This document shows, in pieces, positions 36,901 to 63,990 of a stretch of DNA of 64,000 nt. The position numbers and the translations under genes were made by a program. The stretch spans positions 24,329 to 88,328 of the forward strand of contig JACRNU010000054.1 of NCBI GenBank assembly GCA_016234805.1, in the 5' to 3' direction. Each line of letters begins with the position of its first letter. The first letter of the stretch is position 1. The notes under the pieces were generated by a model that saw only the letters and a program-made list of their open reading frames with translations, did no database searches and was not told the origin of the DNA. This stretch comes from Elusimicrobiota bacterium (GTDB taxonomy: Bacteria > Elusimicrobiota > Elusimicrobia > UBA1565 > UBA9628).

Positions 36901-37269
36901 CTATGAGGCAAGCACCTTGTCCAGCTTCTTGTAGAGCTTCTCCTGGTCGAAGGGCTTGGTGAGGTAGTCCGATGCCCCATGCTGGAACGCGGTCTCGATG
37001 TCGCCCATGCGGTCGAGGGCGGTGATCATGAGGATCTTGATGTTCTTGGTGGCCGGGTCGGCCTTGAGGACGCGGCACACGTCGAAGCCCCCCATCCGGG
37101 GCATGAGGATGTCGAGCAGGAGCACGTCCGGACGCTCCTTGCGGCAGACCTCCACGGCCTCGACACCGTCGCCGGCGGAGAAGACCTTGTATCCCCGGGC
37201 GGCCATGAGGGCCTTGATGTTCTCCGCCACGACGAACTCGTCTTCAGCGATGACCACCTTGATGGACAT
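36901..37269 (-). CDS. Single-domain response regulator receiver (CheY-like)
   Basis: Motifs VVIAEDEFVVAE...DVLLLDILMPRMGGFDV...ITALD...KPF. Confidence 0.85.
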   Translation of the reverse strand: MSIKVVIAEDEFVVAENIKALMAARGYKVFSAGDGVEAVEVCRKERPDVLLLDILMPRMGGFDVCRVLKADPATKNIKILMITALDRMGDIETAFQHGASDYLTKPFDQEKLYKKLDKVLAS

Positions 37270-37293: not shown

Positions 37294-38100
37294 CTAGGAG
37301 GGTCGGAGCGCGGCCACGGCCGGCGGCTTGAGGGTGGTGGGCAGCCGCATGGCCATGCGCGAGACCCCGTCGGCGTCCACGCTGAACCCGAAGTCGCCGC
37401 CCTGGAGCCGGGCCACGAGCTTGAGCATGCCCAGCCCCATGCCGACCGAGCAGAGCTGCTGGTCCTTGCGGCGCTTGGCCGGATAATACAGGTCGAGCGA
37501 GTTCTCCGCGTCTTCAGCCGACATCTTGGCCCCGTGGTAGGTCACCACGGTCTCGACCTCGCCTTGGAGGGCCCGCGCCGTGATGGTGATGTCCCCCGCG
37601 GTGCGGAACTTGCGCGCGTGGAACAGCATGCTCGAGATCGAGCGGAAGAGCCGGTCCGGGTCCGCCATCACCGCCGGGAGTTCCCCGACCTCCGTCTTGA
37701 CCTTGACGTCGGACTCCGCCACCGAGGATCCCACCGCGCGGAGCACGGACTCCACGGCCTCGGCCACGGACGAGGGCTCGACGTAGACCACGAGGTCGCG
37801 CCGCATCACGTGGTGGATGAGGTCGCGCAGCTCTCCCACGATGGAGCCCATGCGGCTCGTCTGAGCCCGCATGAGCTGCATCCACTTGGCTTGGTCCTCG
37901 GGGATGTCGCCGAAGATGCCGCTGAGGAAATTGAGGGCCGTCATGTTCACCGCGGTCAGCGGGGTGTTGATCTCATGCCCCGCGAAAGAGATGAGCCGGC
38001 CGAGCTGGCCGATCTCCCTGCGCCTGAGGTAGAACCCCGCCGCGGCGGCGCCGGCCGCGCCCACGGCCAGTCCCGCGAGGAAGACCGCGGCCCCTCTCAT
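37294..38100 (-). CDS. Small sensor histidine kinase (one TM, HisKA + HATPase_c)
   Basis: H-box FAGHEINTPLTAV and a C-terminal ATP-binding region (GMGLGMLKLVARLQGG). The start was taken at the ATG at 38100 within the longer listed ORF. Confidence 0.7.
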   Translation of the reverse strand: MRGAAVFLAGLAVGAAGAAAAGFYLRRREIGQLGRLISFAGHEINTPLTAVNMTALNFLSGIFGDIPEDQAKWMQLMRAQTSRMGSIVGELRDLIHHVMRRDLVVYVEPSSVAEAVESVLRAVGSSVAESDVKVKTEVGELPAVMADPDRLFRSISSMLFHARKFRTAGDITITARALQGEVETVVTYHGAKMSAEDAENSLDLYYPAKRRKDQQLCSVGMGLGMLKLVARLQGGDFGFSVDADGVSRMAMRLPTTLKPPAVAALRPS

Positions 38101-38621
38101 GGCCGGAACACCACCCTGCTCGCACGCTTCGTCGCGGCCGAGAGGGCCGTATAATCCGCGGCGCTCGCGCGGATCTCCTTGATGGAGTCCTTGTGGAGCT
38201 TCTTGACGACCTTGGCCGGGACGCCCAGCACCAGGCTGCCGGGCGGCACTTTGAGCCCCGCCGGGACCACGGCCCCGGCTCCGATCACGCTGCCGCGGCC
38301 GATGGTCGCTTCCATCACCACCGCGCCCATGCCGATGAGGCAGTCGTCGCCGATGACCGAGCCGTGGATGACCGCGCCGTGGCCGACCGTGATCCGCTTG
38401 CCCAGGATTGCCGGCCTGCCGCGCCTGTTGTGCACGACCGACATGTCCTGGATGTTGGTGTCCGCCCCGACCACGACCTTGTCCACGTCCCCGCGCAGCA
38501 CGCACATGGGCCAGACCGACGCGCCCGGGCCCAGGGAGACCCTTCCGATGACCTCGGCCGAGTCGTGGACAAAGGCTTTCGGGTGGATCTTCGGGCTGTT
38601 GCCGTTGAAGGTGCGTATCAT
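38097..38621 (-). CDS. Gamma-class carbonic anhydrase / hexapeptide-repeat family protein (YrdA/PaaY-like)
   Basis: Left-handed beta-helix hexapeptide repeats with Zn-ligand histidines (VVHNRRG...ITVGHGAVIHGSVIGDDCLIGMGAVV). Confidence 0.85.
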   Translation of the reverse strand: MIRTFNGNSPKIHPKAFVHDSAEVIGRVSLGPGASVWPMCVLRGDVDKVVVGADTNIQDMSVVHNRRGRPAILGKRITVGHGAVIHGSVIGDDCLIGMGAVVMEATIGRGSVIGAGAVVPAGLKVPPGSLVLGVPAKVVKKLHKDSIKEIRASAADYTALSAATKRASRVVFRP

Positions 38622-38693: not shown

Positions 38694-40316
38694 ATGAACA
38701 AGGATTGCGATTTCCTCGTGCTTGGAAGCGGCATCGCGGGCCTCATGGCCGCGCACAAGCTCTCCACCCTGGGCCGGGTCGTGATCGCCACCAAGAAAGA
38801 CGCCGCCGAGTCCAACACCAACTACGCCCAGGGCGGCATCGCCTCCGTGACCGCGGCGACCGACAGCGTGGAGCGGCACGCGGCCGACACCATGGCCGCG
38901 GGAGCCGGGCTCTGCGACGAGAGGATCGTCCGCCAGGTGGTCACCGAGGGGCCTGAGCGCATCAAGGAGCTCATCAGCCTCGGGGTCAAGTTCAGCCACG
39001 CCAAGGCCGCTGCCAAGGCGCGCGGCTCGCGGCGGGGTCCGCGTCCCGCGGACCGCTCAGGCACGGCCCTGGACCTGGGCCTCGAAGCCGGCCACTCCCA
39101 CCGCCGGGTCCTCCACGCGGGCGACATCACCGGCCGCGAGATGGAGCGGGCCCTGCTCCAGCGCTGCCGCGAGAACCCCCGCATCCGCATCCTCGAGGAT
39201 TCCCTCGCCGTCGACCTCATCTGCCGTCCCGACTGCCAGGGCGCTTACATCATGGACGTCCGGAGCAGGAAGATCCACTCCTGGAGCGCCAAGGCCGTGG
39301 TCCTGGCCACGGGCGGGGCCGGCAAGGTCTACCTCTACACCTCCAATCCCGACATCGCCTCCGGCGACGGCATGGCCATGGCCTACCGCGCCGGAGCCGC
39401 CATGGCCAACATGGAGTTCGTCCAGTTCCACCCCACCTGCCTCTACCACCCGCAGGCCAAGTCCTTCCTCCTCTCCGAGGCCCTGCGCGGGGAGGGAGGC
39501 AGGCTCGTGCGCAAGGACGGCGCGGCCTTCATGGCAAAGTACACGCCCATGAAGGAGCTCGCGCCCCGCGACATCGTGGCCCGGGCCATCGACTCGGAGC
39601 TCAAGCGCACCGGCGACGACTGCGTCTACCTCGACATGACGCACCAGTCCCGCGGCTTCCTGCAAGGCCGCTTTCCCAACATCTACGAGAAGCTCATGAG
39701 CTTCGGCATCGACATGGCGGTCGAGCCCATCCCGGCCGTGCCCGCGGCCCACTACTTCTGCGGCGGGGTCAAGACCGACGCCTGGGGCTCGACCACCATC
39801 CCCGGCCTCTATGCCTCGGGCGAGGTGGCCTGCACCGGCCTGCACGGCGCCAACCGCCTGGCTTCCAACTCCTTGCTCGAAGGCTGCGTGTTCAGCCACC
39901 GCATCTTCCTCAAGCTCAGCGAGCTCTGGCCCACGCTCAAGCGCTCGCGCCCGGCCCCTCCGCGCGACTGGAACCCAGGCAAGGCCGTGCCCATCGACGA
40001 GGCCGTGGTCATCACCCAGAACTGGGACGAGATCCGCCGCCTCATGTGGAACTACGTGGCCATCGTGCGCTCCGACCGCAGGCTCGAGCGAGCGCTCCAC
40101 CGCATGTGGCTCTTGAACGCGGAGATCGACCAGTACTACTGGAACTACATCCTCACTCCGGACCTCGTGGAGCTCCGCAACCTCGCCGTGGTCGCGACCC
40201 TAGTCATCAGCTCGGCGCGCAAGCGCAAGGAGAGCCGCGGCCTGCACTACAACCTCGACCACCCCAAGCTTCGGGCCCGCGAGCTCCACGACACCGTCAT
40301 CCAGAGGAAGAAGTAG
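38694..40316 (+). CDS. nadB: L-aspartate oxidase
   Basis: FAD-binding motif DFLVLGSGIAGL, AQGGIA and RVLHAGDITGRE, plus the succinate dehydrogenase / fumarate reductase flavoprotein fold. Confidence 0.9.
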   Translation: MNKDCDFLVLGSGIAGLMAAHKLSTLGRVVIATKKDAAESNTNYAQGGIASVTAATDSVERHAADTMAAGAGLCDERIVRQVVTEGPERIKELISLGVKFSHAKAAAKARGSRRGPRPADRSGTALDLGLEAGHSHRRVLHAGDITGREMERALLQRCRENPRIRILEDSLAVDLICRPDCQGAYIMDVRSRKIHSWSAKAVVLATGGAGKVYLYTSNPDIASGDGMAMAYRAGAAMANMEFVQFHPTCLYHPQAKSFLLSEALRGEGGRLVRKDGAAFMAKYTPMKELAPRDIVARAIDSELKRTGDDCVYLDMTHQSRGFLQGRFPNIYEKLMSFGIDMAVEPIPAVPAAHYFCGGVKTDAWGSTTIPGLYASGEVACTGLHGANRLASNSLLEGCVFSHRIFLKLSELWPTLKRSRPAPPRDWNPGKAVPIDEAVVITQNWDEIRRLMWNYVAIVRSDRRLERALHRMWLLNAEIDQYYWNYILTPDLVELRNLAVVATLVISSARKRKESRGLHYNLDHPKLRARELHDTVIQRKK

Positions 40317-40347: not shown

Positions 40348-41151
40348 TCAGGCCGTCTTCCAGACCTCGTCGAGCGATTCGCGGAAGACGGCGTCCAGCG
40401 TCTCCCAATCCACGGGATGCCGGGCGGCCTTGGGAGGCATTTCATTGTTCAGCCGGGAGATCTCCCGCTCCACGAACCCATTGATATCCGGTATTCTGGG
40501 ACCGTCAGCGAGCTCTTCTCCCGCTCGCTTGCGGCGGAGGAGATCGGACACGATGGGTCGGAGCCGCTCGGGCAGCCGGTCGTCCACGAGTTTGGCGAAC
40601 TCCATCGGCGGCATGGACCGGTGCGCTTCGATCCAGCGGCACGCCAGGATCGGACGGAGCACATAGAAGTACTTCTTGGTGCGGACGCGCGGGCCCTGGA
40701 GATACTCGCGGAAGTTGCCCTGCGCCATGTGAAGATAGTGGTGGAGGCACGACCGGGAGGAAAAGAACGCCGCTGACATGCGGCGCAAGCTCGCCATCGT
40801 CGAATACGCCTCCCGATAGACCATCGGAGAACGGAGCCACTCGAAGAGCGGCGGATTCGATTTGGCGAAGAGCCCGAGAGCCTTCCGCAGGTCCCAACCG
40901 CTGACATCGAGAGATTCGGAAAGCGGGAATTCGAGGACATCCCTTCTCCGCTGGATCGACAGATACCATTCGGGCCGCCTCAAGTAGATGAAGCGGACGT
41001 CCCAATCGGAATCGGTCGAGGCGAAGCCCCATGCCCTGCTGCCCGATTCGACCGCGAGCAGGACTTTGACCCCTTCGTTCCTTTCAATCCGCCCGAGCGC
41101 GGCGCGGATGGTATTTTTCATGGCGTCTCTGTGCCCTTCCATCCGTATCAT
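40348..41151 (-). CDS. Pol-beta-superfamily nucleotidyltransferase (PF10127/RlaP-like 'predicted nucleotidyltransferase')
   Basis: GS...D.D core LLAVESGSRAWGFASTDSDWDVRFIY with a C-terminal helical domain. The start was taken at the ATG at 41151, a 4-nt overlap with the upstream gene. Confidence 0.55.
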   Translation of the reverse strand: MIRMEGHRDAMKNTIRAALGRIERNEGVKVLLAVESGSRAWGFASTDSDWDVRFIYLRRPEWYLSIQRRRDVLEFPLSESLDVSGWDLRKALGLFAKSNPPLFEWLRSPMVYREAYSTMASLRRMSAAFFSSRSCLHHYLHMAQGNFREYLQGPRVRTKKYFYVLRPILACRWIEAHRSMPPMEFAKLVDDRLPERLRPIVSDLLRRKRAGEELADGPRIPDINGFVEREISRLNNEMPPKAARHPVDWETLDAVFRESLDEVWKTA

Positions 41152-42326
41152 GATGCGTTGCCGCCGATCCCTCCGGCGCTCGATCGCGGATAACCCCGCT
41201 CGATTTCCGCGAATATCTGCCAATCCCTTGCAATAAACGGCTGAATGGTTCGGCCTGTCATTTCCCCCATAGCCTGAATCAGCGAGAGATCGTCCGGGTT
41301 GGCCATGGCTATTGCAAGGATGCCCTCGTCCAGGAAGAGAGGCACCACGGCGTGTTCTTTGGCAAAGGACCGCGGGATGAGTTTCTCTAGACCCTGCGCA
41401 TGTTCCATTTTTAGAATCTTGTTCTCGAATGAGGCATAGGGAATCCCCATCTGTCGCGAGATGGCTGTCACCATCGTCTCGTCATCGGTGCCGCCCACTC
41501 TACGCAGAAGATCCATGAAATCGTGGAAATCGATGCTCATGTCCACCCGTAATGCCTCGGCGATTCCCGCAGTGAGATCATATGCCGGCAGACGGCGAAC
41601 CTGGTTGGTGTGTTGGGGGAGGACCTGACGCAAGGCTTCTGTTCCAGCCTTCCATGGCTCGTCAGCCCGTTGCTTGTGATTGAACACGGTGCTGAACGAG
41701 CTGGGCAATCGGGATTGAACGAATTCCCGCGCAAGCGCGTTCAGGGCTGGGATGTTCCGTTCAGCGATATTGTCCTCGTGGGGATCGACAACCCAAAAGC
41801 CATGTTCGATCTCCATCAGGAGGGATCGGCCGAAATGGCTGGATGGCCGGTGGATATCCCCGATTTCTGGTCCGAAGTCCAGGACCACATTGTAATGGCT
41901 CTTTAGGTCGTCCAGCAAACCCTTCAAGAATTCGGGCGATAAAGCCTTAAGGGCGGACTCATTCTTCCCCAGCGGGAGGATGCCAAGTCCTGTGGTTGAG
42001 AACGGAACAGATGTAGTTGTCGCTTGGAGGTCCAGCACGCTTTGGGTACCGGCAATTCCAAGCTGTCCTTGGAATCGATTCGCGCTCTCGAAATCGAGTG
42101 TGAGCAGCACGGTCTTGCATCTGGACCAATCTGCCCACGCCAACGCGACATGGAATGCCAGAGTTGAAACTCCGACTCCCGGAACACCGGCGAAACCCAC
42201 CGCCTTCTTCGTGGCGATGGGGGTTGGACTGCTCCCGCCCGCCATGTCGGTCCCCACTCGTGTTGGCGGCCAACGGGGCGGTCTGTCTCGGGAGGCTTTG
42301 GGTTTCTTGTCTGGGTCGGATGTCAT
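41148..42326 (-). CDS. Fusion protein: degenerate ParA/MinD-like P-loop domain (Walker A Lys replaced by Val: GVPGVGVST) + GspE-N1 / MshEN-like domain
   Basis: The C-terminal 95 aa (ISRQMGIPYASFENKILKMEHAQGLEKLIPRSFAKEHAVVPLFLDEG...) is ~50% identical to residues ~50-145 of the GspE encoded at 59835-61583. The N-terminal half has a MinD/ParA-like layout with an inactivated P-loop. Local GC (~52%) is lower than the window average. Confidence 0.5.
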   Translation of the reverse strand: MTSDPDKKPKASRDRPPRWPPTRVGTDMAGGSSPTPIATKKAVGFAGVPGVGVSTLAFHVALAWADWSRCKTVLLTLDFESANRFQGQLGIAGTQSVLDLQATTTSVPFSTTGLGILPLGKNESALKALSPEFLKGLLDDLKSHYNVVLDFGPEIGDIHRPSSHFGRSLLMEIEHGFWVVDPHEDNIAERNIPALNALAREFVQSRLPSSFSTVFNHKQRADEPWKAGTEALRQVLPQHTNQVRRLPAYDLTAGIAEALRVDMSIDFHDFMDLLRRVGGTDDETMVTAISRQMGIPYASFENKILKMEHAQGLEKLIPRSFAKEHAVVPLFLDEGILAIAMANPDDLSLIQAMGEMTGRTIQPFIARDWQIFAEIERGYPRSSAGGIGGNAS

Positions 42327-42473
42327 CCTATTGTAGTCACGCCGACATTGGACTGCCTCCTAATGAGTAGATAGGCCAGTATAACACGGCTGACGAGAAT
42401 CGCTCAACAGATAAGCGCCCTGAAGGCCGTCGAAATCGGCAAGGGTGGTGCGTGTGGGTGGCATGCGGCGGGC

Positions 42474-42881
42474 CTATCGTCGTGCCTTGGATCTCCGATT
42501 GCCGCGGGAGGAGAGGGTTCCATAGCGACGACGGCGATCCGCCACGGCGGACTCTGTCCAGTGATAAGCGTGTCCTTTCCCGTTGATCGGGAAGAAGCCG
42601 ATCCTCAGGCCGTAGACGTTGAGGATCGCGTCCAGGGTGTTGAATTCGGGGTTGCCTCTTGAGGAAAGGGTCTTGTATAGGGTAGTCCTGCTCAAGCGGG
42701 TCTTCTTGGCCAGGGCGCCGACGCCGCCTTGGGCCTCCACGACATCGCGCAGGGCCTCCAGGAGGAAATCGAGTTCGTTGTCTTCGGCGATTGCGTTGAG
42801 GTAGGCAGCGGCCTCTATTGGATCGGCAAGATACTTCTTGAGGAACTCTTCATGCGGCCTAGTCGTGATGATGGGTTTCAT
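42474..42881 (-). CDS. Addiction-module antidote protein (HigA-like, TIGR02684-type HTH antitoxin)
   Basis: ...TRPHEEFLKKYLADPIEAAAYLNAIAEDNELDFLLEALRDVVEAQGG...LSRTTLYKTLSSRGNPEFNTLDAILNVYGL. It sits downstream of and overlaps the toxin gene. Confidence 0.7.
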   Translation of the reverse strand: MKPIITTRPHEEFLKKYLADPIEAAAYLNAIAEDNELDFLLEALRDVVEAQGGVGALAKKTRLSRTTLYKTLSSRGNPEFNTLDAILNVYGLRIGFFPINGKGHAYHWTESAVADRRRRYGTLSSRGNRRSKARR

Positions 42882-43222
42882 GGAAGCCTCCTGTGCTGTA
42901 GCCACATCTGGTGGGCTCTATGGATGTCCTTTGTCTGGGTATCCTTGGGGCCAGCGCAGAGCAGCAGCACGATGACTGGCCCGTCCTCGCCGTAGTAGAC
43001 ACGGTAGCCTGGGCCGGTATGGATGCGCAGTTCCCAGACTCCGCACCCCACGGAACGATGGTCTCCAAATTGGCCTTTGCGTACCCGGGCAATGCGCTTG
43101 AGGATCGCGATGCGACCGGACATGTCGCGAAGGCCGAATAGCCAGTCCTCAAAGATGTTCTTTCCATTGGCGAGATAGTGCTGAATCTGTCGTCTTCGGG
43201 GTTCCAAGTCTTCCTCCTTCAA
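42878..43222 (-). CDS. Addiction-module killer protein (RelE/HigB-like, TIGR02683-type)
   Basis: ...FEDWLFGLRD...GNFGDHRSVGCGVWELRIHTGPGYRVYYGEDGPVIVLLLCAGPKDTQTKDI. It is toxin-first, the HigBA-type arrangement. Confidence 0.7.
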   Translation of the reverse strand: MKEEDLEPRRRQIQHYLANGKNIFEDWLFGLRDMSGRIAILKRIARVRKGQFGDHRSVGCGVWELRIHTGPGYRVYYGEDGPVIVLLLCAGPKDTQTKDIHRAHQMWLQHRRLP

Positions 43223-43339
43223 GTGTAGTCTATAAAAGACAATCGGTCAAGGGCCCGGATCTCGACCTCACCCAGTGTTCGGGCGGGCGGATTGATCCCT
43301 GGGCCAGTGGAGCACCCAAGGCCGTTCATCGGCCGGCAA

Positions 43340-43440
43340 GAATTGCGTTTCCATTCATTTCGCTGTTTCCGGGATCGCGGAAATGGCGTTTCTATGAATT
43401 TCTCTTTCAGCGCTGGAAGAGAACTGCAGGGAAACGCAAT
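43340..43440. promoter_or_regulatory. Cluster of GCGTTTCC / GGAAACGC inverted and direct repeats upstream of the toxin-antitoxin operon
   Basis: AATTGCGTTTCC...CTGTTTCCGGG...CGGAAATGGCGTTTC...GGGAAACGCAAT within about 100 bp. This is a candidate operator array. Confidence 0.4.
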
Positions 43441-43802
43441 CATGCATCCGTGAGGGCGGCCGCGATACTCCGCTTCGTATCGAGCCAATCGTTGTCGAGC
43501 TGGGCTTGGCGCCGGTCAAGTTCGTAGAGCGCGCCTGCCGGCAGAGCCACGAGACGGCACCCGAGAGCTGCGTATAGACTTTTGAGCGTGCTGAGCCGGA
43601 TGTCCGAACCCTTCTCGGCCCGGCCGACCAACGAGGCGGAGACCCCTGCCTGGGCCGCGAGCTGCTTTCGATTCAAGCCGAAGCGGATGCGCAGCCGGCG
43701 CAGACATTCACCGACGTCCCACGACGCGAAGTCAACGGGAGCCGACTCCCCATGCGCGAGAGCATCGCGCACCGGATCGGAGACGTCCCGAAGTTCCCCC
43801 AT
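43440..43802 (-). CDS. XRE-family helix-turn-helix transcriptional regulator, divergent from uvrA
   Basis: HTH_XRE signature [48 protein letters not shown]. The start was chosen at MGELRD; the listed ORF extends further upstream. Confidence 0.55.
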
Positions 43803-43931
43803 ACAGAGTATACGACTGACCCCGGCAAAAAGTTCCCTTGGGGGCTTGAATCTCTGAAGGGAAATCGGAATCTCAATGGAATGGAGCTCGCGTTCGCGGA
43901 TAGGGGCCGAAAGGCCGGGCAGGAAGGCAAA

Positions 43932-46772
43932 ATGGTAGAATCGTCTCCGGTGGACAAGATACGCATCGTCGGCGCGCGCCAGCATAACCTCAAGAACATC
44001 ACACTGGAGCTTCCCAGGGGCAAGATGATCGTGCTGACAGGGCTTTCGGGGTCAGGGAAATCCTCCCTGGCCTTTGACACGCTCTATGCCGAGGGCCAGC
44101 GCAGGTATGTGGAGAGCCTCTCGGCTTATGCGCGGCAGTTCCTCGAGATGATGGACAAGCCGGACGTGGACCTCATCGAGGGGCTTTCGCCTGCCATCTC
44201 CATCGAGCAGAAGAACCCCTCTCACAACCCGCGCTCGACCGTGGCCACGGTCACGGAGATCTACGACTACATGCGCCTGCTCTACGCCAGGGTGGGCCTG
44301 CCGCACTGCCCGCAGTGCGGCAGGCCGATCAAGGCGCAGTCAGCGCAAGCCATCGTCAACGAGATACTGCGCAAGCACGACGGCCGATCCGTGACCTTTT
44401 ACTCCCCCCTGGTGCGGGGCAGGCAGGGCACTTACGAAGAGTTGTTCAAGCGGTTGAAGCGCTCCGGGTTCCAGGCAGTGCGTGTGGACGGCAAGCCGCG
44501 CGACCTGGACACGGTGCCGTCTTTGACGCGGTACGGGAAGCATACCATCGACCTTTTCGTGGACAAGCTGAAGGTGTCCGGGGATGACAAGGCCAGGCTG
44601 ACGGACTCGGTGGAGATCGCTCTCAAGGAGTCGAAGGGGCTGGTGTTGGTCGAGCCTGGGGGCTCGGCCAAGGACGCGGCTGTCTTGAGCGAGCACCACG
44701 CCTGCCCTGAGTGCGGGGTGAGCCTGCCGGAACTGGAGCCGAGGCTGTTCTCCTTCAACTCACCCTACGGCGCCTGTCCCACCTGCGACGGGCTGGGAGT
44801 CAAGACCGAGGTGGATGGTTCCTTGGTGGTCCCGGATCCCGGGCTCTCGGTCAATGACGGGGCCTTGGTGGCTTGGTCGGACCCGATCACGACCCGCACG
44901 AACAGGTGGAAGAAGTCCTGGTCAGGGTATTACACGGAGATCCTCCAGCAGGTCTGCCGGCAGCACGACATCAACATGGACAAGCCGTGGAAGGACCTTC
45001 CAGCCAAGCAGAAGCAGATCCTGTTCTACGGAGGCGGGACTTACAAGCCGTCCTGGGCGAAGAACGAGCAGGAGTTCGAGGGCGTCATCCGGAACCTGGA
45101 GCGCAGGCTCTCGGAGTCCGAGTCGGATTTCGTCAAAGGCGCGGTCGTGGACCGGTTCATGCGCAAGCGGACCTGCCCTTCCTGCAAGGGGGCCCGCCTC
45201 AAGCCCGAGGCCCTGGCGGTCAAGGTGGGCGGGCAGGGCATCGATCGGACCACGGGGTTGTCCGTGGCCAAGGCCTCGGAGTTCTTCAAGGGGCTGGACC
45301 TGAACGCGAGCGAGCTCTCGATCTCCAAGCCCATCCTCAAGGAGATCAACTCGCGCCTGGAATTCCTCATGAGCGTGGGGCTGGATTACCTCACCCTGGA
45401 CCGCGCCTCGGAGACCCTGGCCGGCGGGGAGTCCCAGCGCATCCACCTGGCCACGCAGATCGGGTCAGGCCTGACCGGGGTCCTGTATGTGCTCGATGAG
45501 CCCACCATCGGCCTGCATCCGCGCGACAACACGCGCCTGCTGGCCACTTTGAAGCGGCTTCGGGACATCGGCAACACCCTGGTGGTGGTGGAGCATGACG
45601 AGGAGACGATCCGCGCCGCGGATTGGATCGTGGACCTGGGCCCTGGAGCGGGCAAGCACGGCGGAGAGGTCGTGGCTCAAGGCACGGTGGACGACATCGT
45701 CAATGAGCCGCGGTCCCTGACAGGGGCCTATCTTTCGGGCAAGCTCAAGCCTCTCCAGCGGCTGGAACGGAGGAAGGCCAAGGGCTCCCTGCGGGTCCTG
45801 GGCGCCAAGCAGTTCAACCTCAAGGACATCGACGTGGAGATCCCCCTGGGCATGTTCGTGTGCGTCACCGGGGTCTCGGGGTCGGGCAAGTCCACCCTGG
45901 TGCACGAGGTCATCTGCAAGGCCCTGGCCGCGGACCTGCACGGCGCCAAGGAAGCGGCGGGACAGCACCGCGCCATCAAGGGCATCGAACAGTTGGACAA
46001 GGTCGTGGTGGTCGACCAGAGCCCCATCGGCCGGACCCCGCGCTCCAACCCCGCCACTTACACGGGCCTATGGGCCCCTATCCGCGAGCTCTTCGCCATG
46101 ATGCCGGAGTCCAAGGCCCGCGGTTACAAGCCGGGCAGGTTCTCCTTCAACGTCAAGGGCGGCAGGTGCGAGAACTGCCAGGGAGACGGCACCCTGCGCA
46201 TCTCCATGCAGTTCCTGCCGGACGTGTACGTGCAGTGCGACGAGTGCCACGGCCACCGGTTCAATGACGAGACCCTGACGGTCCGGTACAAGGGCAGGAG
46301 CATCGCCGAGGTCCTGGCCATGAGCGTGGAAGCGGCCTCGGAGTTCTTCCAGGTCCACACCCCCATCAAGCGGGTCCTGACTACCCTGCAGGACGTGGGC
46401 TTGGGCTATATCGCCCTGGGCCAGAGCGCGACCACGCTCTCAGGCGGCGAGGCCCAGAGGGTCAAGCTTGCCACGGAACTCTCGCGCAGGGGCACGGGCC
46501 GGACCCTCTACATCCTGGACGAGCCCACCACGGGCCTGCACTTCGCGGACACGGCCAAGCTCCTCGAGGTCCTCCACCGGCTGGTGGATTCGGGCAACAC
46601 GGTGCTCGTCATCGAGCACAACCTGGACGTGGTCTCGACCGCGGACTGGGTCGTGGACCTGGGCCCTGAAGGAGGCGACCGCGGGGGTCATGTCGTGGCT
46701 GTGGGCCACCCCAAGGACATCGCCAACCACCCATCTTCCCACACCGGCCGCTACCTAGCTGCCCTCAAGTAG
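43932..46772 (+). CDS. uvrA: Excinuclease ABC subunit A
   Basis: Two ABC ATPase modules ([14 protein letters not shown]..., [11 protein letters not shown]...), zinc fingers (CPECG..., CENCQGDG...CDEC) and LSGGE signatures, 946 aa from the ATG at 43932. Confidence 0.95.
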
Positions 46773-56577: not shown

Positions 56578-57234
56578 TCAATCCGACCCGAAGTACTGCC
56601 TGTTCGACCGGAGGAAGGTGTCGACCTTGAGGCTGACGGGGACCGGGATGGTGGCCGCGGCGCCCGTGGCCGGGCGGGTGCCGCTGCCGACCGCGAAATG
56701 CATCTCGATGCCGTCCCCGCGGTTCCTGAAGATGGGCGGCGACGAGGTGAGGTCCTCGTCGCGATAGTGGAAATTCCTGACCAGCACCGTGGTGTTCCCC
56801 CCGAGGATGCAGCCGCCCCCGTTAGGGATGCTGGCCGGGCAATTGAGGCCCGGTCCGACGACCGCGATGCGCAGAAGGGCGGGCATGCCCCCGCCGATGT
56901 CGGGGCTCCGGCAGTAGTAGAACGCGGTGACGTTCAAGCTCGTGTTGAGGCGGCCCTCACCCAGGCTGGTGAATTGCAGGGGCGAGAAATTGACGCACCC
57001 GCCGAGGCCGTCTCCCGTGGCGCCGTGGGCGGGGACGTTGATGAACGAGGCTTCCTCGATCTCCTGGCTCATCTGCTCAAGGGCCATGATGGTCCATCCG
57101 CTCACCTCCCCCTTGAGGCTCGTGTCCACGTGGCTCCTCAGGAGGGAGGCGAACACGGTCATGAGGGCGACGAGGACCGCGGAGCTCAGGCTCAGGGCAA
57201 GGAGCAGCTCGATGAGGGTGAACCCCTGGCGCAA
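56578..57234 (-). CDS. Minor pseudopilin with a G|FTLIELLLAL prepilin cleavage site; its 5' end and leader lie inside the 57-bp tandem repeat array
   Basis: ...LAPLRQG|FTLIELLLALSLSSAVLVALMTV. There is no ATG. The candidate start is TTG at 57234 (MRQG|FTLIE) or an upstream CTG. The same frame stays open through all four repeat units. Confidence 0.55.
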   Translation of the reverse strand: MRQGFTLIELLLALSLSSAVLVALMTVFASLLRSHVDTSLKGEVSGWTIMALEQMSQEIEEASFINVPAHGATGDGLGGCVNFSPLQFTSLGEGRLNTSLNVTAFYYCRSPDIGGGMPALLRIAVVGPGLNCPASIPNGGGCILGGNTTVLVRNFHYRDEDLTSSPPIFRNRGDGIEMHFAVGSGTRPATGAAATIPVPVSLKVDTFLRSNRQYFGSD

Positions 57235-57472
57235 GGGCGCCAGGTCCCCGGAGGGCAGATGTCCTCCGCTCCCGGAGGGGGCCCGGCGCAAGGGCGCCAG
57301 GTCCCCGGAGGGCAGATGTCCTCCGCTCCCGGAGGGGGCCCGGCGCAAGGGCGCCAGGTCCCCGGAGGGCAGATGTCCTCCGCTCCCGGAGGGGGCCCGG
57401 CGCGGGGGCCCGGCGCAAGGGCGCCAGGTCCCCGGAGGGCAGATGTCCTCCGCTCCCGGAGGGGGCCCGGCG
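57225..57472. repeat. Tandem array of four 57-bp repeat units (canonical family sequence), the fourth with an 11-bp insertion
   Basis: CCTGGCGCAAGGGCGCCAGGTCCCCGGAGGGCAGATGTCCTCCGCTCCCGGAGGGGGC x4. The unit is 19 codons, so every frame repeats (e.g. RRAPSGSGGHLPSGDLAPL on the minus strand). There are no spacers, so this is not a CRISPR array. Confidence 0.85.
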
Positions 57473-57473
57473 T

Positions 57474-57986
57474 TTACGGTTCGGTCCAGTCGACATAGAC
57501 CTCCACTCGAGGGATCTGCGCGCCGGAAAGGCCTCCTGCTCCGAAAGGGTGCATCTGGGTGACGACGTAGCGCATGGTGGCGTTGTAGGGCGGGCCGCTG
57601 AACCAGATGGGGAGCATCCCGGTGATGGTGTGCGTGCCCAGCGCGAGGGCGTTGGCGGCGCCCATGCTGTCGGTGATGGTCGCGGCGTCGTACCCGTCGT
57701 TCGGGGCTTTGGCGCCGTTGATGGACCAGTTGGTGGAGGCGGAGGTCCCGCTGGACGGCCCGCGGAAGCCGATGTCGATGGGGGCCTGCGTGGTATCGCC
57801 GGAGACGTAGCCCTTGAGCTTCTCCGACAGCTGGCGCGAAACCTGGTTCGCGACGAGGCGGCGCATGGAGCGTCCCGAGCCCTGGCGGGCGGTGATGGCC
57901 ACGCTGAAGACAGAAGACGTGATGACCGCCACGAGCATCATGGCGATGGTGACCTCGAGGAAAGTCGAACCGCGTTCCTTGTCCAT
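57474..57986 (-). CDS. Minor pseudopilin (GspI/J-like)
   Basis: MDKERG|STFLEVTIAMMLVAVITS has a prepilin-type leader with Glu at +5. Its stop abuts the repeat array. Confidence 0.6.
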   Translation of the reverse strand: MDKERGSTFLEVTIAMMLVAVITSSVFSVAITARQGSGRSMRRLVANQVSRQLSEKLKGYVSGDTTQAPIDIGFRGPSSGTSASTNWSINGAKAPNDGYDAATITDSMGAANALALGTHTITGMLPIWFSGPPYNATMRYVVTQMHPFGAGGLSGAQIPRVEVYVDWTEP

Positions 57987-58001
57987 GGTCCGGCTCCCGG
58001 C

Positions 58002-58517
58002 TTATAATCCCGTCACCGAGGGCGGGTTCGTTCCGATCGCTTCGATCCCGCCGTTGGTGTCCACCGCGAAGCCCCAGGTGTTGTAATCCCCGGACGTGCT
58101 TTTTCGCGTCGCGCAGGCCACCCAATTCCGGCTGGAAAAGGTCTTGCCGCCGCAGGATGACGTCACGCTCCCGTTGGCCGCGTCGAACCGGTACTTCTCG
58201 CCGTCCCAATTCTGCGAGGATATGTATTTGCACTTGACCAGGTCGCAGCCGTCGGCCGCCCCGCCCGTGGGACAGGCGGTCCCGTTGCAGGAGCTCGTCA
58301 GCTGGCCCGCCCGCAAGGTGGTCTGGTTGAGGTCCATGCTCGCCATGCGGTTGGCGGCGGCGAGCGTGCGCACCGTGGCGATGGCATTGTCGGCCCTGGT
58401 CGATTCCATGGCCCTCAGGTATTGGGGGATGCCGTACGCCGCGAGGATGCCGATGAGAGTGACCACGACCACGAGCTCGATGAGGGTGAATCCGGCGGGC
58501 GAGGGTCTTCGCGCCAT
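58002..58517 (-). CDS. Major type IV pilin / GspG-like pseudopilin
   Basis: MARRPSPAG|FTLIELVVVVTLIGILAAYGIPQY is a classic class-III signal. C-terminal Cys pairs (CNGTACPTGGAADGCDLVKC...SSCGGKTFSSRNWVAC) resemble type IVa pilin disulfide loops. The start was taken at the ATG at 58517. Confidence 0.8.
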   Translation of the reverse strand: MARRPSPAGFTLIELVVVVTLIGILAAYGIPQYLRAMESTRADNAIATVRTLAAANRMASMDLNQTTLRAGQLTSSCNGTACPTGGAADGCDLVKCKYISSQNWDGEKYRFDAANGSVTSSCGGKTFSSRNWVACATRKSTSGDYNTWGFAVDTNGGIEAIGTNPPSVTGL

Positions 58518-58583
58518 GTTCCTATTCCTCCGGCCGTCCCCTTCATAGTATGCCTCCGGCATCTGTGCGACATGAGGGCGGCC

Positions 58584-58609
58584 TGTGTGCAAGTTGTGAA
58601 TCATTTCGC
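58584..58609. promoter_or_regulatory. 18-mer TGTGTGCAAGTTGTGAAT in the pilin upstream region (shared with the two-component operon promoter)
   Basis: 17/18 identity to 53229-53246. It lies between the gspF stop and the pilin start. Confidence 0.45.
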
Positions 58610-59827
58610 CCCCAGGGAGGACATCTTGAAGATGGGCAGGAACACGGCCAGCACGATGGTGCCGACGATGAGGCCGATGCCGACGACCATGATGGGCTCG
58701 ATGATGGCCGTGAACCTCCGGGTGAACTGCTCGATCTGCTCGCGGTAGAAGCCCGAGAGGGTCACGAGCATCTCGGGGAGCTTGCCGGACTCTTCTCCCA
58801 TGAACATCATCTCGGTCACCAGCGGAGGGAGGACGCCGGTCTTCTTGAACGCTCCGGAGATGGATTTGCCGCTCGCCACGTCGTTGCGAACCATGCGCAG
58901 GAAGCGCTGGAACATGACGTTGGTGGCGAAGACCCCCTCGAGCACGGTGATGGTGTTGAGGATGCTCACGCCGCTCTCGATGAGGGCCGACATGGTCGTG
59001 AGCAGGCGCTCGACGAGGATGTTCATGATGAACTGGCCGAAGAAGGGGACCTTGAAGGTGAGGGACCATTTCGTCACGTTGCCGGCTTCCGTCGAGGTGT
59101 AGGCCCTCCAGACGAACCCCGAGCCGACGAGGACGAACACGAGGGCCGCGAAGTGGTGCACCATGATGTCCGAGATCAGGACGATGGCCTTGGTCAGGGG
59201 CGGGAGCTGGACTCCGAACTGCTTGAAGATGTCGGAGAAGACCGGCACGATCTTCACGATGAAGAAGGTGAGCACGCCCATGGAGATGAAGAACAGGATG
59301 CCCGGGTACGCCAGGGCGGTGATGACCTTGGCCTTGAGTTCCGACTGGGCCGCGAGGTAGGCGCCGATCTGCTTGAGGGATTTCGGGAGCTGGCCGCCCA
59401 TCTCTCCGGCCTGCACCAGGGAGACCCAGAGGGTGTCGAAGGCCTTGGGGTGCTTCTCGAGCGCCTTGTACAGGGCGGTCCCGCTGGCCACGTCCTTCGT
59501 GACCTGGCCGACCGCGATCTGCAGGCCCTTGGAGCTCGAGTGCTCGCCCAGGAGCGAGAGGGCGCGCACCAGGGGCACGCCGCCGTTGAGGAGGGTGGCC
59601 AGCTGCTCCGCGAAGAAGACGAGGTCGCGCTCGGCGACCCCGGCGGAGCTGACCGCCGCGCCCTTGCCCGACAGCGAGGAGCGGGCGCTCTTGTCGGACG
59701 AGATCGACAGGATGAAGTAGCCCTTGCCCTGGAGGACGCCGATCGCGTCGTTCTCGTCGTTGGCCTCGAGCGAGCCGGAGATGGTCTCTCCCTTGCTGTC
59801 CTGGACCGTGTACGCGAAGCGTGCCAT
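58601..59827 (-). CDS. gspF: Type II secretion / type IV pilus inner-membrane platform protein (GspF/PilC family)
   Basis: 408 aa with two T2SSF repeats (LATLLNGGVPLVRALSLL..., LTTMSALIESGVSILNTITVL...) and 3 TM segments. Confidence 0.9.
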   Translation of the reverse strand: MARFAYTVQDSKGETISGSLEANDENDAIGVLQGKGYFILSISSDKSARSSLSGKGAAVSSAGVAERDLVFFAEQLATLLNGGVPLVRALSLLGEHSSSKGLQIAVGQVTKDVASGTALYKALEKHPKAFDTLWVSLVQAGEMGGQLPKSLKQIGAYLAAQSELKAKVITALAYPGILFFISMGVLTFFIVKIVPVFSDIFKQFGVQLPPLTKAIVLISDIMVHHFAALVFVLVGSGFVWRAYTSTEAGNVTKWSLTFKVPFFGQFIMNILVERLLTTMSALIESGVSILNTITVLEGVFATNVMFQRFLRMVRNDVASGKSISGAFKKTGVLPPLVTEMMFMGEESGKLPEMLVTLSGFYREQIEQFTRRFTAIIEPIMVVGIGLIVGTIVLAVFLPIFKMSSLGAK

Positions 59828-59834
59828 GGTTCTC

Positions 59835-61583
59835 CTAGTCCGCCAACGTGATGGACATGATCTCTTCGACCGTGGTGAGGCCCCGGATGACTTTGCGCCA
59901 GCCGCTCGCGCGCAGGCTCAGCTTGCCGAGCTTGTCCGCCACGGAGCGCAGGCGGGTGAGGTCGCCGCCGTACTTGTAGATGATATCCTTCATCTCCCGC
60001 TCCATGGGGTAGACCTCGAGGATGGCTTTGCGGCCTCCGTAGCCGGTGCGCGCGCACTTGTCGCAGCCCTTCTCTTTGTAGAACATGAGCGTGTCGAGGT
60101 CGGGCTGGTCCTCGGGCTTGAGCATCGCCTGCTCGACGACCATCTTGGCCTCGTCGGCCTCGGGCTTGTAGGGCTTCTTGCAGAGGGGGCAGAGCACGCG
60201 CACGAGGCGCTGCGCCGCGGCGAGTATGAGGCTGCCCGAGAGGAGGAACGGCTCGATGCCGAGGTCGATGAGGCGCACCACGGTCGAGAGGGCGTCGTTG
60301 GTGTGCAGGGTGGAGAGCACGAGGTGGCCGGTGAGGGCCGCGCGCAGGCAGGTCTGGGCGGTCTCCTGGTCGCGCACCTCTCCGACCAGGATGACGTCCG
60401 GGTCCTGCCGCAGGAAGGAGCGCAGAGCGGCCGCGAAGGTGAGCCCGATGGCGGCGCGCACCTGGACCTGGTTGATGCCCTCGAGCTTGATTTCGACGGG
60501 GTCTTCGATGGTCATGAAGTTGAGCTCGGGGGTCTTGATGGTGTTGAGGACCGTGTTGAGGGTGGTGGTCTTGCCCGATCCGGTCGGGCCGGTCAGGAAG
60601 ATGAGCCCGTGCGGCATCGCCGCGCACTTGAGGAAGTCCTCCTTCTGCTCGGGCTCGAGGCCGATCTTGTCGATGTTGAGCTCGACCGCCCCCTTGTCGA
60701 GCAGGCGCATGACCAGCTTCTCGCCGTAGACGGTGGGGCAGATGCTGACGCGCAGGTCGATGATCCTGTTCTGGATCTTCATCGAGAAGGTGCCGTCCTG
60801 GGGCAGGCGCCGCTCCGCGATGTCGAGCTTGGAGAGGATCTTGAACCTGGACACGACCGGGCTGAAGAGGGACTTCGGCGGCGGCATGCGCTCGTAGAGA
60901 CAGCCGTCGATGCGGAAGCGCAGCATGACGCGCTCGTCGTAGCACTCGAGGTGGATGTCCGAGCACCTCTCGGCCACGGCCTGCTTGAGGATGGCGTTGA
61001 CGAGCGCGACCGGGTGCGCGTCCTGGCCGCCGCCGGAGGTGTCCTTGTCGAGGTCGAGCTTCACGTCGGCGTCCGGCATCTCCTCGGCCGCCTCGGTCGT
61101 GGCCGACTGCTTGTCCATCGTCTTCTCGATGATCTCGCGTCCCCCGGCCTGGTAGAACTCGTCGATGGCCTTGATGATCTGGGTCTTCGTCGCGACGAAG
61201 GGCTGGACCTCCCGGCTGGTGAGGAGCTTGAGGTTGTCCATCATGACCATGTTGTCGGGGTTGACCACGGCCACGGCGATGACCCCTTCGTCGAGGAACA
61301 GGGGGAGGACCAGGTTGTCCCGGGCGAAGGACTCGGTGATGAGCTTCTCGAGGCCCTGGCCCTTCTCGGCCTTGAGGATCTTGTTCTCCTTGGAGGCGTA
61401 GGGGACCCCGATCTGCTTGGACATCGCGACCGCGATGTCCTCTTCGGTCGCGAACCCCAGCTTGATGACCGCTTCGGCGAACTGACACCGCGCCTGCTGC
61501 GCGGTCTTGAGGGCTCTCGAGTGCTGCTCCTCGTTGAGGACATTGCCCTGAAGCAGTATCTGGTCCAAGGTCAGCTTCTGCAT
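59835..61583 (-). CDS. gspE: Type II secretion / type IV pilus assembly ATPase (GspE/PilB family) with an N-terminal N1E/MshEN-like domain
   Basis: Walker A LIFLTGPTGSGKTTTL, Asp box, Walker B, His box and a tetracysteine motif (CPLCKKPY...CDKCARTGY). The N-terminal domain is paralogous to the C-terminus of the 41148-42326 protein. Confidence 0.9.
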   Translation of the reverse strand: MQKLTLDQILLQGNVLNEEQHSRALKTAQQARCQFAEAVIKLGFATEEDIAVAMSKQIGVPYASKENKILKAEKGQGLEKLITESFARDNLVLPLFLDEGVIAVAVVNPDNMVMMDNLKLLTSREVQPFVATKTQIIKAIDEFYQAGGREIIEKTMDKQSATTEAAEEMPDADVKLDLDKDTSGGGQDAHPVALVNAILKQAVAERCSDIHLECYDERVMLRFRIDGCLYERMPPPKSLFSPVVSRFKILSKLDIAERRLPQDGTFSMKIQNRIIDLRVSICPTVYGEKLVMRLLDKGAVELNIDKIGLEPEQKEDFLKCAAMPHGLIFLTGPTGSGKTTTLNTVLNTIKTPELNFMTIEDPVEIKLEGINQVQVRAAIGLTFAAALRSFLRQDPDVILVGEVRDQETAQTCLRAALTGHLVLSTLHTNDALSTVVRLIDLGIEPFLLSGSLILAAAQRLVRVLCPLCKKPYKPEADEAKMVVEQAMLKPEDQPDLDTLMFYKEKGCDKCARTGYGGRKAILEVYPMEREMKDIIYKYGGDLTRLRSVADKLGKLSLRASGWRKVIRGLTTVEEIMSITLAD

Positions 61584-61659
61584 ACTTGAAGTATAACTCC
61601 ATGGCGGGGAATGTTCAAGAGGAAATGTAACATATCATCGGCGGCTAGCCGCCGATGGG

Positions 61660-61712
61660 GGTGCCTGGCTTGGGCCTGACCAAGTCACCCCGGTTCAAGC
61701 CTGGCACCCGGG
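61660..61712. repeat. Hairpin repeat GGTGCCTGGCTTGG-N-CAAGCCTGGCACC (family copy 3) between gspD and gspE
   Basis: Same arms as 4914-4970 and 5607-5660. Confidence 0.75.
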
Positions 61713-61723
61713 ACATCGTACGG

Positions 61724-63412: not shown

Positions 63413-63438
63413 GATGTCTCCCTTGGTGCCGCCGTCCG

Positions 63439-63990
63439 TCACTGCATGCGCTTCAAGAATGCCTTGCCCTTGTGCGTGAAAGTCACTCCTGTCTGGGAGA
63501 TCTTCAGGACCTTGATCCCCGAGTTCCCGATCCACTCGCCTTCGCTGTACATGTCGTTGTTGATGATGGCTTTGTTGCCTTCCGGCGTGGTCACGATGCC
63601 CTGCAGGCTGAGGGTCTGCTCGACGGGCTTGTCTCGCTGGACCTTGGCCCGGAGCGCCTGCTCTTCGACCTCTTTGCGTTTGATGAGCTTCTCGAGCTCC
63701 TCCTGTTCGAGGAGGAACTGGTCGTAGGGGGAAAGCAGGGGATCGCGCCAATCCACGGCCACGAGGTCCGCGGTGCTCACCGCGATTTCCGGGGCCTGCG
63801 GCGGGGCCGGCGTCGCCAGGGACGCGGTCGAGGCCGGAGGCCGAGCGTCCCCGCCGCCCTCAGGCATGGCGTTGGCGGACGGGGGCGCGGGGGTCACGGC
63901 GCCGGAGGCGTCGACCGGGGCCGGGTCGGACGGGGCGGCCGCGTCCACCACGGCGGCCGCTGTCTGGGAGGCGGTCTCCGTGCTGACCAC
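63439..63990 (-). CDS. Ala/Pro-rich protein with a PilP/GspC-like C-terminal beta domain; possibly 5'-truncated by the window edge
   Basis: The C-terminal ~70 aa (LQGIVTTPEGNKAIINNDMYSEGEWIGNSGIKVLKISQTGVTFTHKGKAF) resemble secretin-binding pilot domains. The listed ORF reaches to within 10 nt of the window end. Confidence 0.35.
   Translation of the reverse strand: MVSTETASQTAAAVVDAAAPSDPAPVDASGAVTPAPPSANAMPEGGGDARPPASTASLATPAPPQAPEIAVSTADLVAVDWRDPLLSPYDQFLLEQEELEKLIKRKEVEEQALRAKVQRDKPVEQTLSLQGIVTTPEGNKAIINNDMYSEGEWIGNSGIKVLKISQTGVTFTHKGKAFLKRMQ

Follow-up and report, generated by a model that had tools for sequence, protein, structure and literature searches.

RlaP nucleotidyltransferases take their name from the frequent place of the family in RNA-ligase operons, and the Pseudomonas enzymes add one or two nucleoside monophosphates (NMPs) to the 3'-OH of RNA, with damaged RNA as the preferred substrate (2025 preprint, PMC12776372). 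Three strictly conserved aspartates are reported for RlaP, and it has been proposed that these enzymes repair RNAs trimmed by ribotoxins, that is, that they act as ribotoxin antidotes (PMC12776372). TadZ/CpaE is MinD-like and directs the Tad (type IVc) pilus machinery to the cell pole (PMC11407121). In MshE, cyclic di-GMP (c-di-GMP) is held by the four-helix MshEN_N domain (residues 1-64) through two tandem 24-residue motifs of the form RLGxx(L/V/I)(L/V/I)xxG(L/V/I)(L/V/I)xxxxLxxxLxxQ, and the MshEN_C domain gives one contact only (PMC5013675). Relatives of these proteins lie close together in a metagenome-assembled genome (MAG) from the Elusimicrobia, in a stretch of 64,000 nucleotides of contig JACRNU010000054.1 (hereafter the window), where five consecutive minus-strand open reading frames (ORFs) separate nadB (38694-40316, plus strand) from uvrA (plus strand, conserved N-terminus from 43932). 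They encode an RlaP-family nucleotidyltransferase (NTase), a fusion protein of 392 residues (41148-42326, minus strand; NCBI locus HZB91_08285) that is here called simply the ORF, a HigBA-type toxin-antitoxin (TA) pair, and an XRE-family regulator. A sequence-only reading of the window had singled out the NTase and the ORF, the latter under the label of a pseudo-ParA::MshEN fusion, as a candidate signalling or defence module. The evidence set out below points to a different view, in which the region is probably a 3.6-kb mosaic accessory insertion made up of units that are most likely independent, and not a module.

An accessory block at the nadB|uvrA junction

The block departs from its surroundings in composition. 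GC is 0.54-0.58 over 41.2-43.4 kb, and when the 64 kb were scanned in 1.2-kb segments the minimum (0.559) fell at position 41201 against a mean of 0.662 (s.d. 0.03), the islet being the sole part in which the 1.2-kb GC is below 0.60. GC at third codon positions (GC3), calculated for each gene, is 0.89-0.96 in host genes (nadB, uvrA, PilB, PilC, a peptidase, a radical-SAM gene and others) and, within the islet, 0.79 in the NTase gene, 0.64 in the ORF and 0.73, 0.68 and 0.74 in the other three. The NTase gene, which had been described as being of native GC, is therefore not compositionally native.

The site was compared with its counterparts in relatives found by scanning metagenomes with NadB (loci L092, L094-L097, L100, L101, L107, L112 and L136). 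The order of a gammaCA-like gene, nadB, the gap, uvrA and an MA-peptidase gene is kept in the eight nearest relatives whose flanks are long enough (NadB 63-70% and UvrA 72-74% identical), and their nadB|uvrA gaps, which measure 1.0-1.36 kb, contain nothing homologous to the five islet genes. These gaps hold other cargo, namely a minus-strand gene of 380-400 residues with an HNH endonuclease domain in seven of the eight, and two small ORFs of no known family in the eighth (L092); in two more distant relatives the spacing between nadB and uvrA is just 60-104 bp. Cargo thus recurs at the nadB|uvrA junction across related Elusimicrobia, a modest point for this lineage, and the entire 3.6-kb block from 40348 to about 43930 is accessory. 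Since the NTase gene has a low GC3 and is absent from the relatives' gap, the islet comprises five genes and not the four minus-strand genes that had been counted. The rest of that description, a low-GC accessory islet unrelated to its housekeeping flanks, is borne out by the GC dip, the GC3 values and the break in synteny.

A TadZ-like domain joined to part of PilB

The components of the islet belong to known families, and only the small family of orphan fusions that includes the ORF is mildly novel. Its N-terminal domain is hard to recognise from sequence: over the first 280 residues Pfam returned nothing even at E<=10 except noise (NACHT, RIX1), and the thioredoxin matches that a phmmer search gave among PDB sequences were chance only (E>=0.07). 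Among 5.8 billion clustered proteins the one whole-length match to the ORF was the ORF itself, and all other matches were the N-termini of Elusimicrobia PilB-type ATPases, the PilB of the same contig included. An exhaustive HMMER search with the N-domain alone, against 1.84 billion representatives, yielded nine remote relatives (E=3e-13 to 1e-3) that carry CbiA/AAA_31/ParA Pfam domains, one of them (P0153) with a REC+CpaE architecture. A profile built from these nine recovered about 25 more, with E-values down to 1e-57, which are CbiA/AAA_31 proteins and come from Elusimicrobia where named. Three of the relatives (P0162, P0163 and P0167) are encoded in Tad operons with the order TadE, RcpC, secretin, ORF family, TadA/CpaF, TadB, TadC, TPR, and one Tad-operon relative is fused to TadA (CpaF). 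An alignment-based AlphaFold2 (AF2) model of the ORF reached a predicted local distance difference test score (pLDDT) of 74 overall (a single-sequence model, with a pLDDT of 35, was discarded), and with this model Foldseek returned ParA (3ea0), FlhG (4rz2), FleN (5j1j) and MinD (1hyq) at a probability of 1.00 and E-values of 3e-8 to 4e-7. As no sequence hidden Markov model (HMM) recognises the domain, the ParA assignment rests on the remote homologues and the predicted fold; by these it is placed in the ParA/MinD fold, in a rare Elusimicrobia lineage of the TadZ/CpaE-like clade. The earlier label 'ParA-like' thus holds, although the Pfam CbiA/ParA check that had been proposed for it comes out empty for this domain.

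The ORF resembles TadZ/CpaE in the fold of this domain, and its relatives fill the secretin-[TadZ]-TadA(CpaF) slot of Elusimicrobia Tad operons. Unlike TadZ/CpaE, its gene lies outside a tad locus, between the TA pair and RlaP (a tblastn search with Tad proteins found no tad locus in the 64 kb); it has a proline-rich motif in place of an N-terminal receiver-like domain; its P-loop lysine is lost; and a fragment of the PilB N-terminus is fused at its C-terminus. The degenerate Walker A motif, or P-loop (residues 47-55, GVPGVGVST; 42162-42188, minus strand), has valine in place of lysine in a loop that is one residue shorter, and both the substitution and the deletion are unique to the window copy among some 30 relatives, which keep G-x-G-K-[ST] in forms such as GPKEG[VAS]GKT[TS] (GPKEGVGKTT) or SAHSGVGKST. 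The sequence-only reading had correctly taken this P-loop (GVGVST) to be inactivated. FlhG, FleN and MinD, SIMIBI-class proteins that are among the best structural matches, use ATP-driven dimerisation by way of a deviant Walker A, whereas the ORF has neither the signature lysine of KGGxGK[ST] nor the P-loop lysine. With the P-loop lysine missing, established ParA/MinD biochemistry would lead one to expect no ATP-dependent dimerisation, and the ORF would not be an ATP-driven switch.

The C-terminal segment (41169-41519, minus strand) is derived from PilB. In tblastn it corresponds to residues 35-148 of the host PilB (P0002), with 46% identity and E=5.6e-29, and it consists of one helical hairpin followed by the alpha/beta MshEN_C domain, the MshEN family PF05157 being matched at residues 313-381 (E=1.5e-16). 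The model has pLDDT values of 82-98 over residues 281-380 and of more than 90 in the PF05157 part, where there are three strands with flanking helices, and Foldseek matches the domain to GSPII-A of PilF (9g1w). That this part arose by recent duplication of the host PilB is ruled out by the 46% identity and by a GC3 of 0.63 against 0.96. In the PF05157 match, the identity to the host PilB and the PilF GSPII-A fold the segment is like the MshEN/GSPII domains of MshE, PilB and PilF; it is unlike them in having no ATPase domain after it and in lacking the two MshEN_N motifs. The region of the first c-di-GMP motif is wholly missing, as the PilB homology begins at residue 35, the MshEN part is the alpha/beta MshEN_C half alone, and neither the strict motif nor its published relaxed pattern occurs anywhere in the ORF. 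Because both motifs are missing, binding of c-di-GMP by the ORF is not expected and would be predicted, from sequence, to be unlikely. Of the domain that had been called 'c-di-GMP-receptor-like', the MshEN_C identity stands and the receptor label does not. The N-terminus of the host PilB likewise fails the relaxed motif; this protein is encoded (59835-61583, with MshEN) in a type IV pilus (T4P) or type II secretion system-like cluster at 56578-63751 on the minus strand, together with a secretin (61724-63751), PilC (58601-59827) and pilin-like N_methyl ORFs.

The fusion itself is the sole unusual element of the islet. The nearest relative, P0146, is 32% identical to the ORF over residues 5-379 (tblastn E=1e-51) and joins a TadZ-like domain to PilB residues 35-295 (MshEN_C plus the N2 domain), and P0149 joins a TadZ-like domain to PilB residues 36-78 and 187-294, most of MshEN_C being lost. 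Each of the two genes is complete, ends in a stop codon of its own at the same point of PilB (about 295) and lacks an ATPase core, and no remnant of such a core was found downstream of either. The fusion junction, at about PilB residue 35, is common to P0146, P0149 and the window ORF, which ends at about PilB residue 148, just before RlaP, and is the most degenerate copy. Of roughly 15 billion proteins, about five have the ATPase-less TadZ-like::PilB-N architecture. Its orphan TadZ-like subfamily is further marked by the N-terminal proline-rich motif (residues 8-26, KPKASRDRPPRWPPTRVGT; 42249-42305, minus strand), which is conserved in P0149, the shorter P0154 and the P0146 locus L006; the pattern K-x-[KR]-x-S-R-x-x-P-P-x-x-P-P-T-x-[VI]-G is confined to this subfamily, and the Tad-operon members are without it. 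The conservation of this motif favours the start at 42326 (392 residues) over the annotated ATG at 42245 (365 residues), and in L006 the motif (142-205) also precedes the annotated start.

Upstream of the ORF, a leader at 42337-42407 (minus strand) contains a promoter-like site found by consensus scan (42407-42378) and, by direct reading, a mini-ORF, ATG TCG GCG TGA (42348-42337, minus strand). The mini-ORF has a perfect AGGAGG 7 nt upstream and stops 10 nt before the ATG at 42326, which has itself a poor Shine-Dalgarno sequence, and it may be a reinitiation leader.

A plausible history is that an Elusimicrobia-specific TadZ/CpaE-like branch of the ParA/MinD family became fused, in an ancestor, to PilB residues of about 35-295 without the ATPase core, and that the window copy then lost the P-loop lysine and everything past PilB residue 148 or so. 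What remains could serve the type IV pilus machinery as a nucleotide-independent scaffold, adaptor or decoy, or it could be a relic in decay. The more definite proposal would be that the ORF functions, independently of nucleotides, as a decoy or adaptor of the host T4P machine, in which the PilB-like domain docks at the PilB site and the TadZ-like domain localises or oligomerises, with the result that the pilus is modulated or blocked, for example against pilus-dependent phages. A complete T4P cluster (secretin, PilB, PilC and pilins) is present 16 kb away, and the C-domain that resembles its PilB is confidently folded. In P0146 and P0149 alike the architecture has no ATPase and its end points are identical, which suggests design over decay, and the conserved proline-rich motif implies a binding partner. 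The subfamily also adjoins TA and insertion sequence (IS) elements: P0149 lies beside a BrnT/BrnA TA pair, P0154 beside an IS110 transposase and the window copy beside the HigBA-type pair (for the other orphan genes the regions concerned are L007:1669-3407, L008:286-2319 and L172:80-2174). Such a role is nevertheless unlikely, as the family is so small, the losses go further in the window copy, where the P-loop lysine and PilB residues 149-295 are gone, than in its relatives, and the loss of most of MshEN_C from P0149 makes a pattern that is equally typical of erosion.

A bolder version would extend the idea to all orphan TadZ-like::PilB ~35-295 proteins, with the N-terminal motif K-x-[KR]-x-S-R-x-x-P-P-x-x-P-P-T and no ATPase core, as a small class of mobile-element-associated pilus-motor decoys. 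These would replace the motor on the T4P/Tad platform and turn piliation off, for instance to keep out pilus-dependent phages or rival elements; the window copy would be a nucleotide-independent one captured beside RlaP. We regard this as a long shot. If the fusion is functional, it could shed light on the recruitment or blocking of pilus motors in a phylum that has been little studied.

RlaP and its neighbourhoods

The second protein of the supposed module is a clear member of its family. The NTase (40348-41121, minus strand; 257 residues from the homology-supported ATG at 41121) matches PF10127 with E=6e-94 and 314.8 bits against a cutoff of 23, over profile positions 1-248 of 249, as expected if it is the Pol-beta-type NTase that had been recognised earlier. 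It shares with the RlaP proteins of Pseudomonas fluorescens and Pseudomonas aeruginosa, and with NrdC.11 of T4, the full-length family match and the catalytic aspartates. The signature is intact: G37, S38, D49, D51 and D82 (numbered from the 41151 start) are invariant in a 22-sequence alignment, and the window enzyme retains every clade-invariant residue, the G-S / D-x-D...D set included. From this it is expected to extend the 3'-OH ends of RNA by one or two NMPs. A PDB sequence search with RlaP gave no matches. Thousands of homologues, with 47-80% identity, occur in Elusimicrobia, Acidobacteriota, NC10, Nitrospirota, Bacteroidota, Bacillota and others. Characterised RlaP members sit in RtcB/RtcA or other RNA-ligase operons, whereas the window enzyme belongs to a widespread 'solo' clade; its neighbours are nadB and the ORF, with no RNA ligase adjoining it, the rest of the window not having been scanned for RtcB. 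The existence of a large solo clade outside RNA-ligase operons in many phyla bears on the role of RlaP in vivo.

It had been suggested that the NTase gene and the ORF overlap by ATGA and are co-translated. The string is present at 41151-41148, where an in-frame ATG (41151) overlaps the stop codon of the ORF, and a further in-frame ATG at 41142 is the start in the NCBI annotation. In 84 of 120 RlaP homologues, however, exactly 26 residues precede the GSR motif, which places the start at 41121; the start at 41151, 30 nt further upstream, would add 10 residues that are common to no homologue. With the start that the homologues favour, the two genes would stand 26 nt apart and would not overlap, so that translational coupling is not established.

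The survey of RlaP neighbourhoods took in 80 genome loci, each from a different GTDB species, with flanks of 10 kb on either side, from which 112 same-strand neighbours were assigned to Pfam families and 269 immediate-neighbour proteins were clustered by BLAST. No relative of the ORF, the TA pair, the XRE gene or nadB was found by tblastn in any of the 80 loci, and CbiA, ParA and MshEN domains were absent from all 112 same-strand neighbours. The latter carry 117 Pfam families, the commonest being those of lineage-specific housekeeping genes, with PIN found four times, DUF3226 four times and RNA_ligase (PF09414) twice. The 269 immediate neighbours form 222 clusters, and such synteny as exists is lineage-specific only (NuoG in Saprospiraceae and MiaB in Chitinophagales, for example). 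Three homologues with 68-80% identity are flanked by an HTH (helix-turn-helix) gene, by dapA/dapF and by a 289-residue protein, respectively. The 289-residue gene, directly upstream of a 77%-identical RlaP (L005), was considered as a relative of the ORF and proved unrelated (BLASTP E>1). From the side of the ORF, there is no RlaP beside P0149, where the flank is long enough to show one, and none was seen beside P0146 (72 bp downstream) or P0154 (80 bp upstream), where the short contigs make a weak test. The pair is not conserved as neighbours in other genomes, and this is the very finding that the sequence-only reading had named as one that would refute its module; it had also called for a search of defence databases. 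PADLOC-DB v2, searched at E<=0.1, gave zero families for the NTase or the ORF, and weak generic HTH matches only for the XRE protein. In another Elusimicrobia MAG (L001:7686-8798), a 68%-identical RlaP has a 98-residue HTH_3/HTH_37 gene 19 bp upstream, in a TA-like layout.

In the mosaic that we consider probable, the units would act separately. The TA pair would be autoregulated, with an mRNA-cleaving toxin restrained by the HTH antitoxin, by analogy with other type II systems, and probably helps the islet to be retained. The intact solo RlaP would extend damaged 3' ends of RNA by one or two nucleotides. The close junction between the ORF and RlaP would be a secondary juxtaposition peculiar to this genome rather than an evolved operon, and possibly the very event that truncated the ORF; a rearrangement scar is suggested by the fact that the truncation point abuts RlaP. 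Several observations weigh against such a mosaic. No integrase, no tRNA gene and no flanking direct repeats of at least 12 nt were found that would point to a mechanism of insertion. The ORF is intact, with no stops or frameshifts, and has coding-like GC1, GC2 and GC3; as its PilB-derived domain is also modelled very confidently, it may be functional rather than a relic. No more than 26 nt separate the ORF from RlaP, both genes lie on one strand and no terminator is predicted in the gap; they are probably co-transcribed, which leaves room for a lineage-specific functional link. All three informative contexts of the orphan subfamily (the window counted) adjoin TA or IS elements, which hints at some role connected with mobile elements. 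Finally, this version of the ORF occurs in one genome only, which gives no measure of selection.

It might also be supposed that RlaP is tied to the RelE/ParE toxin and repairs or marks the RNA ends left by it or by invading ribotoxins, the islet then being an RNA-damage and repair cassette. The preference of RlaP for damaged RNA and its proposed function as a ribotoxin antidote (PMC12776372) would fit, a ribonuclease-family toxin is encoded 1.7 kb upstream on the same strand, and PIN-domain genes adjoin RlaP homologues in the 4 of 112 cases noted above. This is improbable, given that no HI1419/HI1420 homologue (the toxin and antitoxin types of the window pair) was found within 10 kb in the 80 RlaP loci, that RNA ligase is absent from the islet and stands beside only 2 of the 112 homologue neighbours, and that the ORF and a separate promoter-like site intervene between the TA pair and RlaP.

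Derivation from the stability region of an integrated plasmid or integrative and conjugative element (ICE), with a ParA-like protein for partition, a TA pair as addiction module and a regulator, is very unlikely. A protein of ParA/MinD fold, a TA pair, an XRE gene and a foreign composition are typical of such regions, but the N-domain is closest to the TadZ-like proteins of pilus operons and not to partition ParAs, and the islet has no ParB, replication gene, integrase or repeat boundary. A tblastn search of 72,556 plasmids and 50,697 phages with the ORF found no match, scans of IMG/VR with the ORF and with RlaP found no relatives, and there is no tRNA gene in the window.

The module first proposed, in which c-di-GMP or another nucleotide is sensed by the MshEN part and RlaP serves as effector or modifier, can draw on the tight same-strand linkage with its ATGA string, on a setting in an accessory islet beside a TA pair and on the action of RlaP-type enzymes on conflict-damaged RNA (PMC12776372), but it is hardly credible in view of the non-conserved pair, the missing motifs, the dead P-loop that makes ATP sensing unlikely, the lack of a PADLOC match and the RlaP start that removes the overlap. 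A new defence module composed of an NTase and a nucleotide sensor would have been notable; the evidence does not support it.

The toxin-antitoxin pair, the XRE gene and other features

The remaining units of the mosaic can be described more briefly. The toxin, of the HI1419-type RelE/ParE (HigB-like) group, is encoded at 42878-43207 on the minus strand (109 residues from TTG 43207, with AGGAGG 5 nt upstream; 109-114 residues if the starts at 43207 and 43222 are both considered). It matches TIGR02683 with E=3.9e-34 and 116.9 bits against a cutoff of 62.85, and PF05973 (Gp49) weakly only. A PDB sequence search with the toxin gave no matches, so that no relative of solved structure is found by sequence. 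The antitoxin, of the HI1420 type (HigA-like), is an HTH protein with a basic C-terminal tail (42474-42881, minus strand; 135 residues from ATG 42881) that matches PF21716 with E=2e-14 and 53.6 bits against 27, and TIGR02684 with 52.6 bits, just under the cutoff of 53.7. The toxin gene comes first and overlaps the antitoxin gene by ATGA at 42881-42878, and promoter-like hexamers precede it at 43250-43222 (consensus scan). In its toxin-first order, its 4-bp overlap, its RelE/ParE toxin and its HTH antitoxin, the pair is like HigBA-style type II systems (HI1419/HI1420), as had been recognised; it is unlike them in the extra basic tail of the antitoxin, about 35 residues long, and in the unusual distance, 100-200 bp, by which a repeat cluster precedes the promoter-like site.

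This cluster, at 43342-43440 directly after the stop of the XRE gene, consists of three 13-nt motifs, A[TG][GA]GAAACGC[AC]AT, two direct and one inverted. It had been described as an upstream array of GCGTTTCC/GGAAACGC repeats; the repeats are there, but as two exact 8-mers, one on each strand, with degenerate copies they do not make an array and are better seen as the three 13-nt motifs. With up to three mismatches the motif has eight matches in the 64 kb, of which three fall within the 99 bp of the cluster, and the 11-nt core shows no enrichment in 172 other loci. Read as RNA, the minus strand of 43325-43450 would fold into a compound hairpin (-41.6 kcal/mol, z=-3.8) that none of 200 shuffles equalled in stability, and Rfam returned no family for the islet, the cluster included, with only sub-threshold microRNA noise. 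The sequence is consistent with the cluster being, probably, an operator for one of the HTH proteins, such as the XRE regulator, and/or a transcript-end structure.

The XRE-family HTH regulator (43440-43802, minus strand) is divergent from uvrA and matches HTH_3 (E=5e-8) and HTH_31 (E=2e-7), in keeping with its earlier assignment. Its likely start is ATG 43802, although the frame is open to 43985, and as mechanically called ORFs the XRE gene (to 43985) and uvrA (from 43752) overlap on opposite strands. With the likely starts, 43932 for uvrA (its conserved N-terminus) and 43802 for the XRE gene (an in-frame Met before the HTH), the divergent genes stand about 130 bp apart, with a GC of 0.55 in the intergenic stretch. 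On the far side of nadB, the gammaCA-like gene (38097-38621, Hexapep) has a response-regulator ORF (36901-37269, minus strand) and a histidine-kinase-like ORF just upstream, and these are of native composition.

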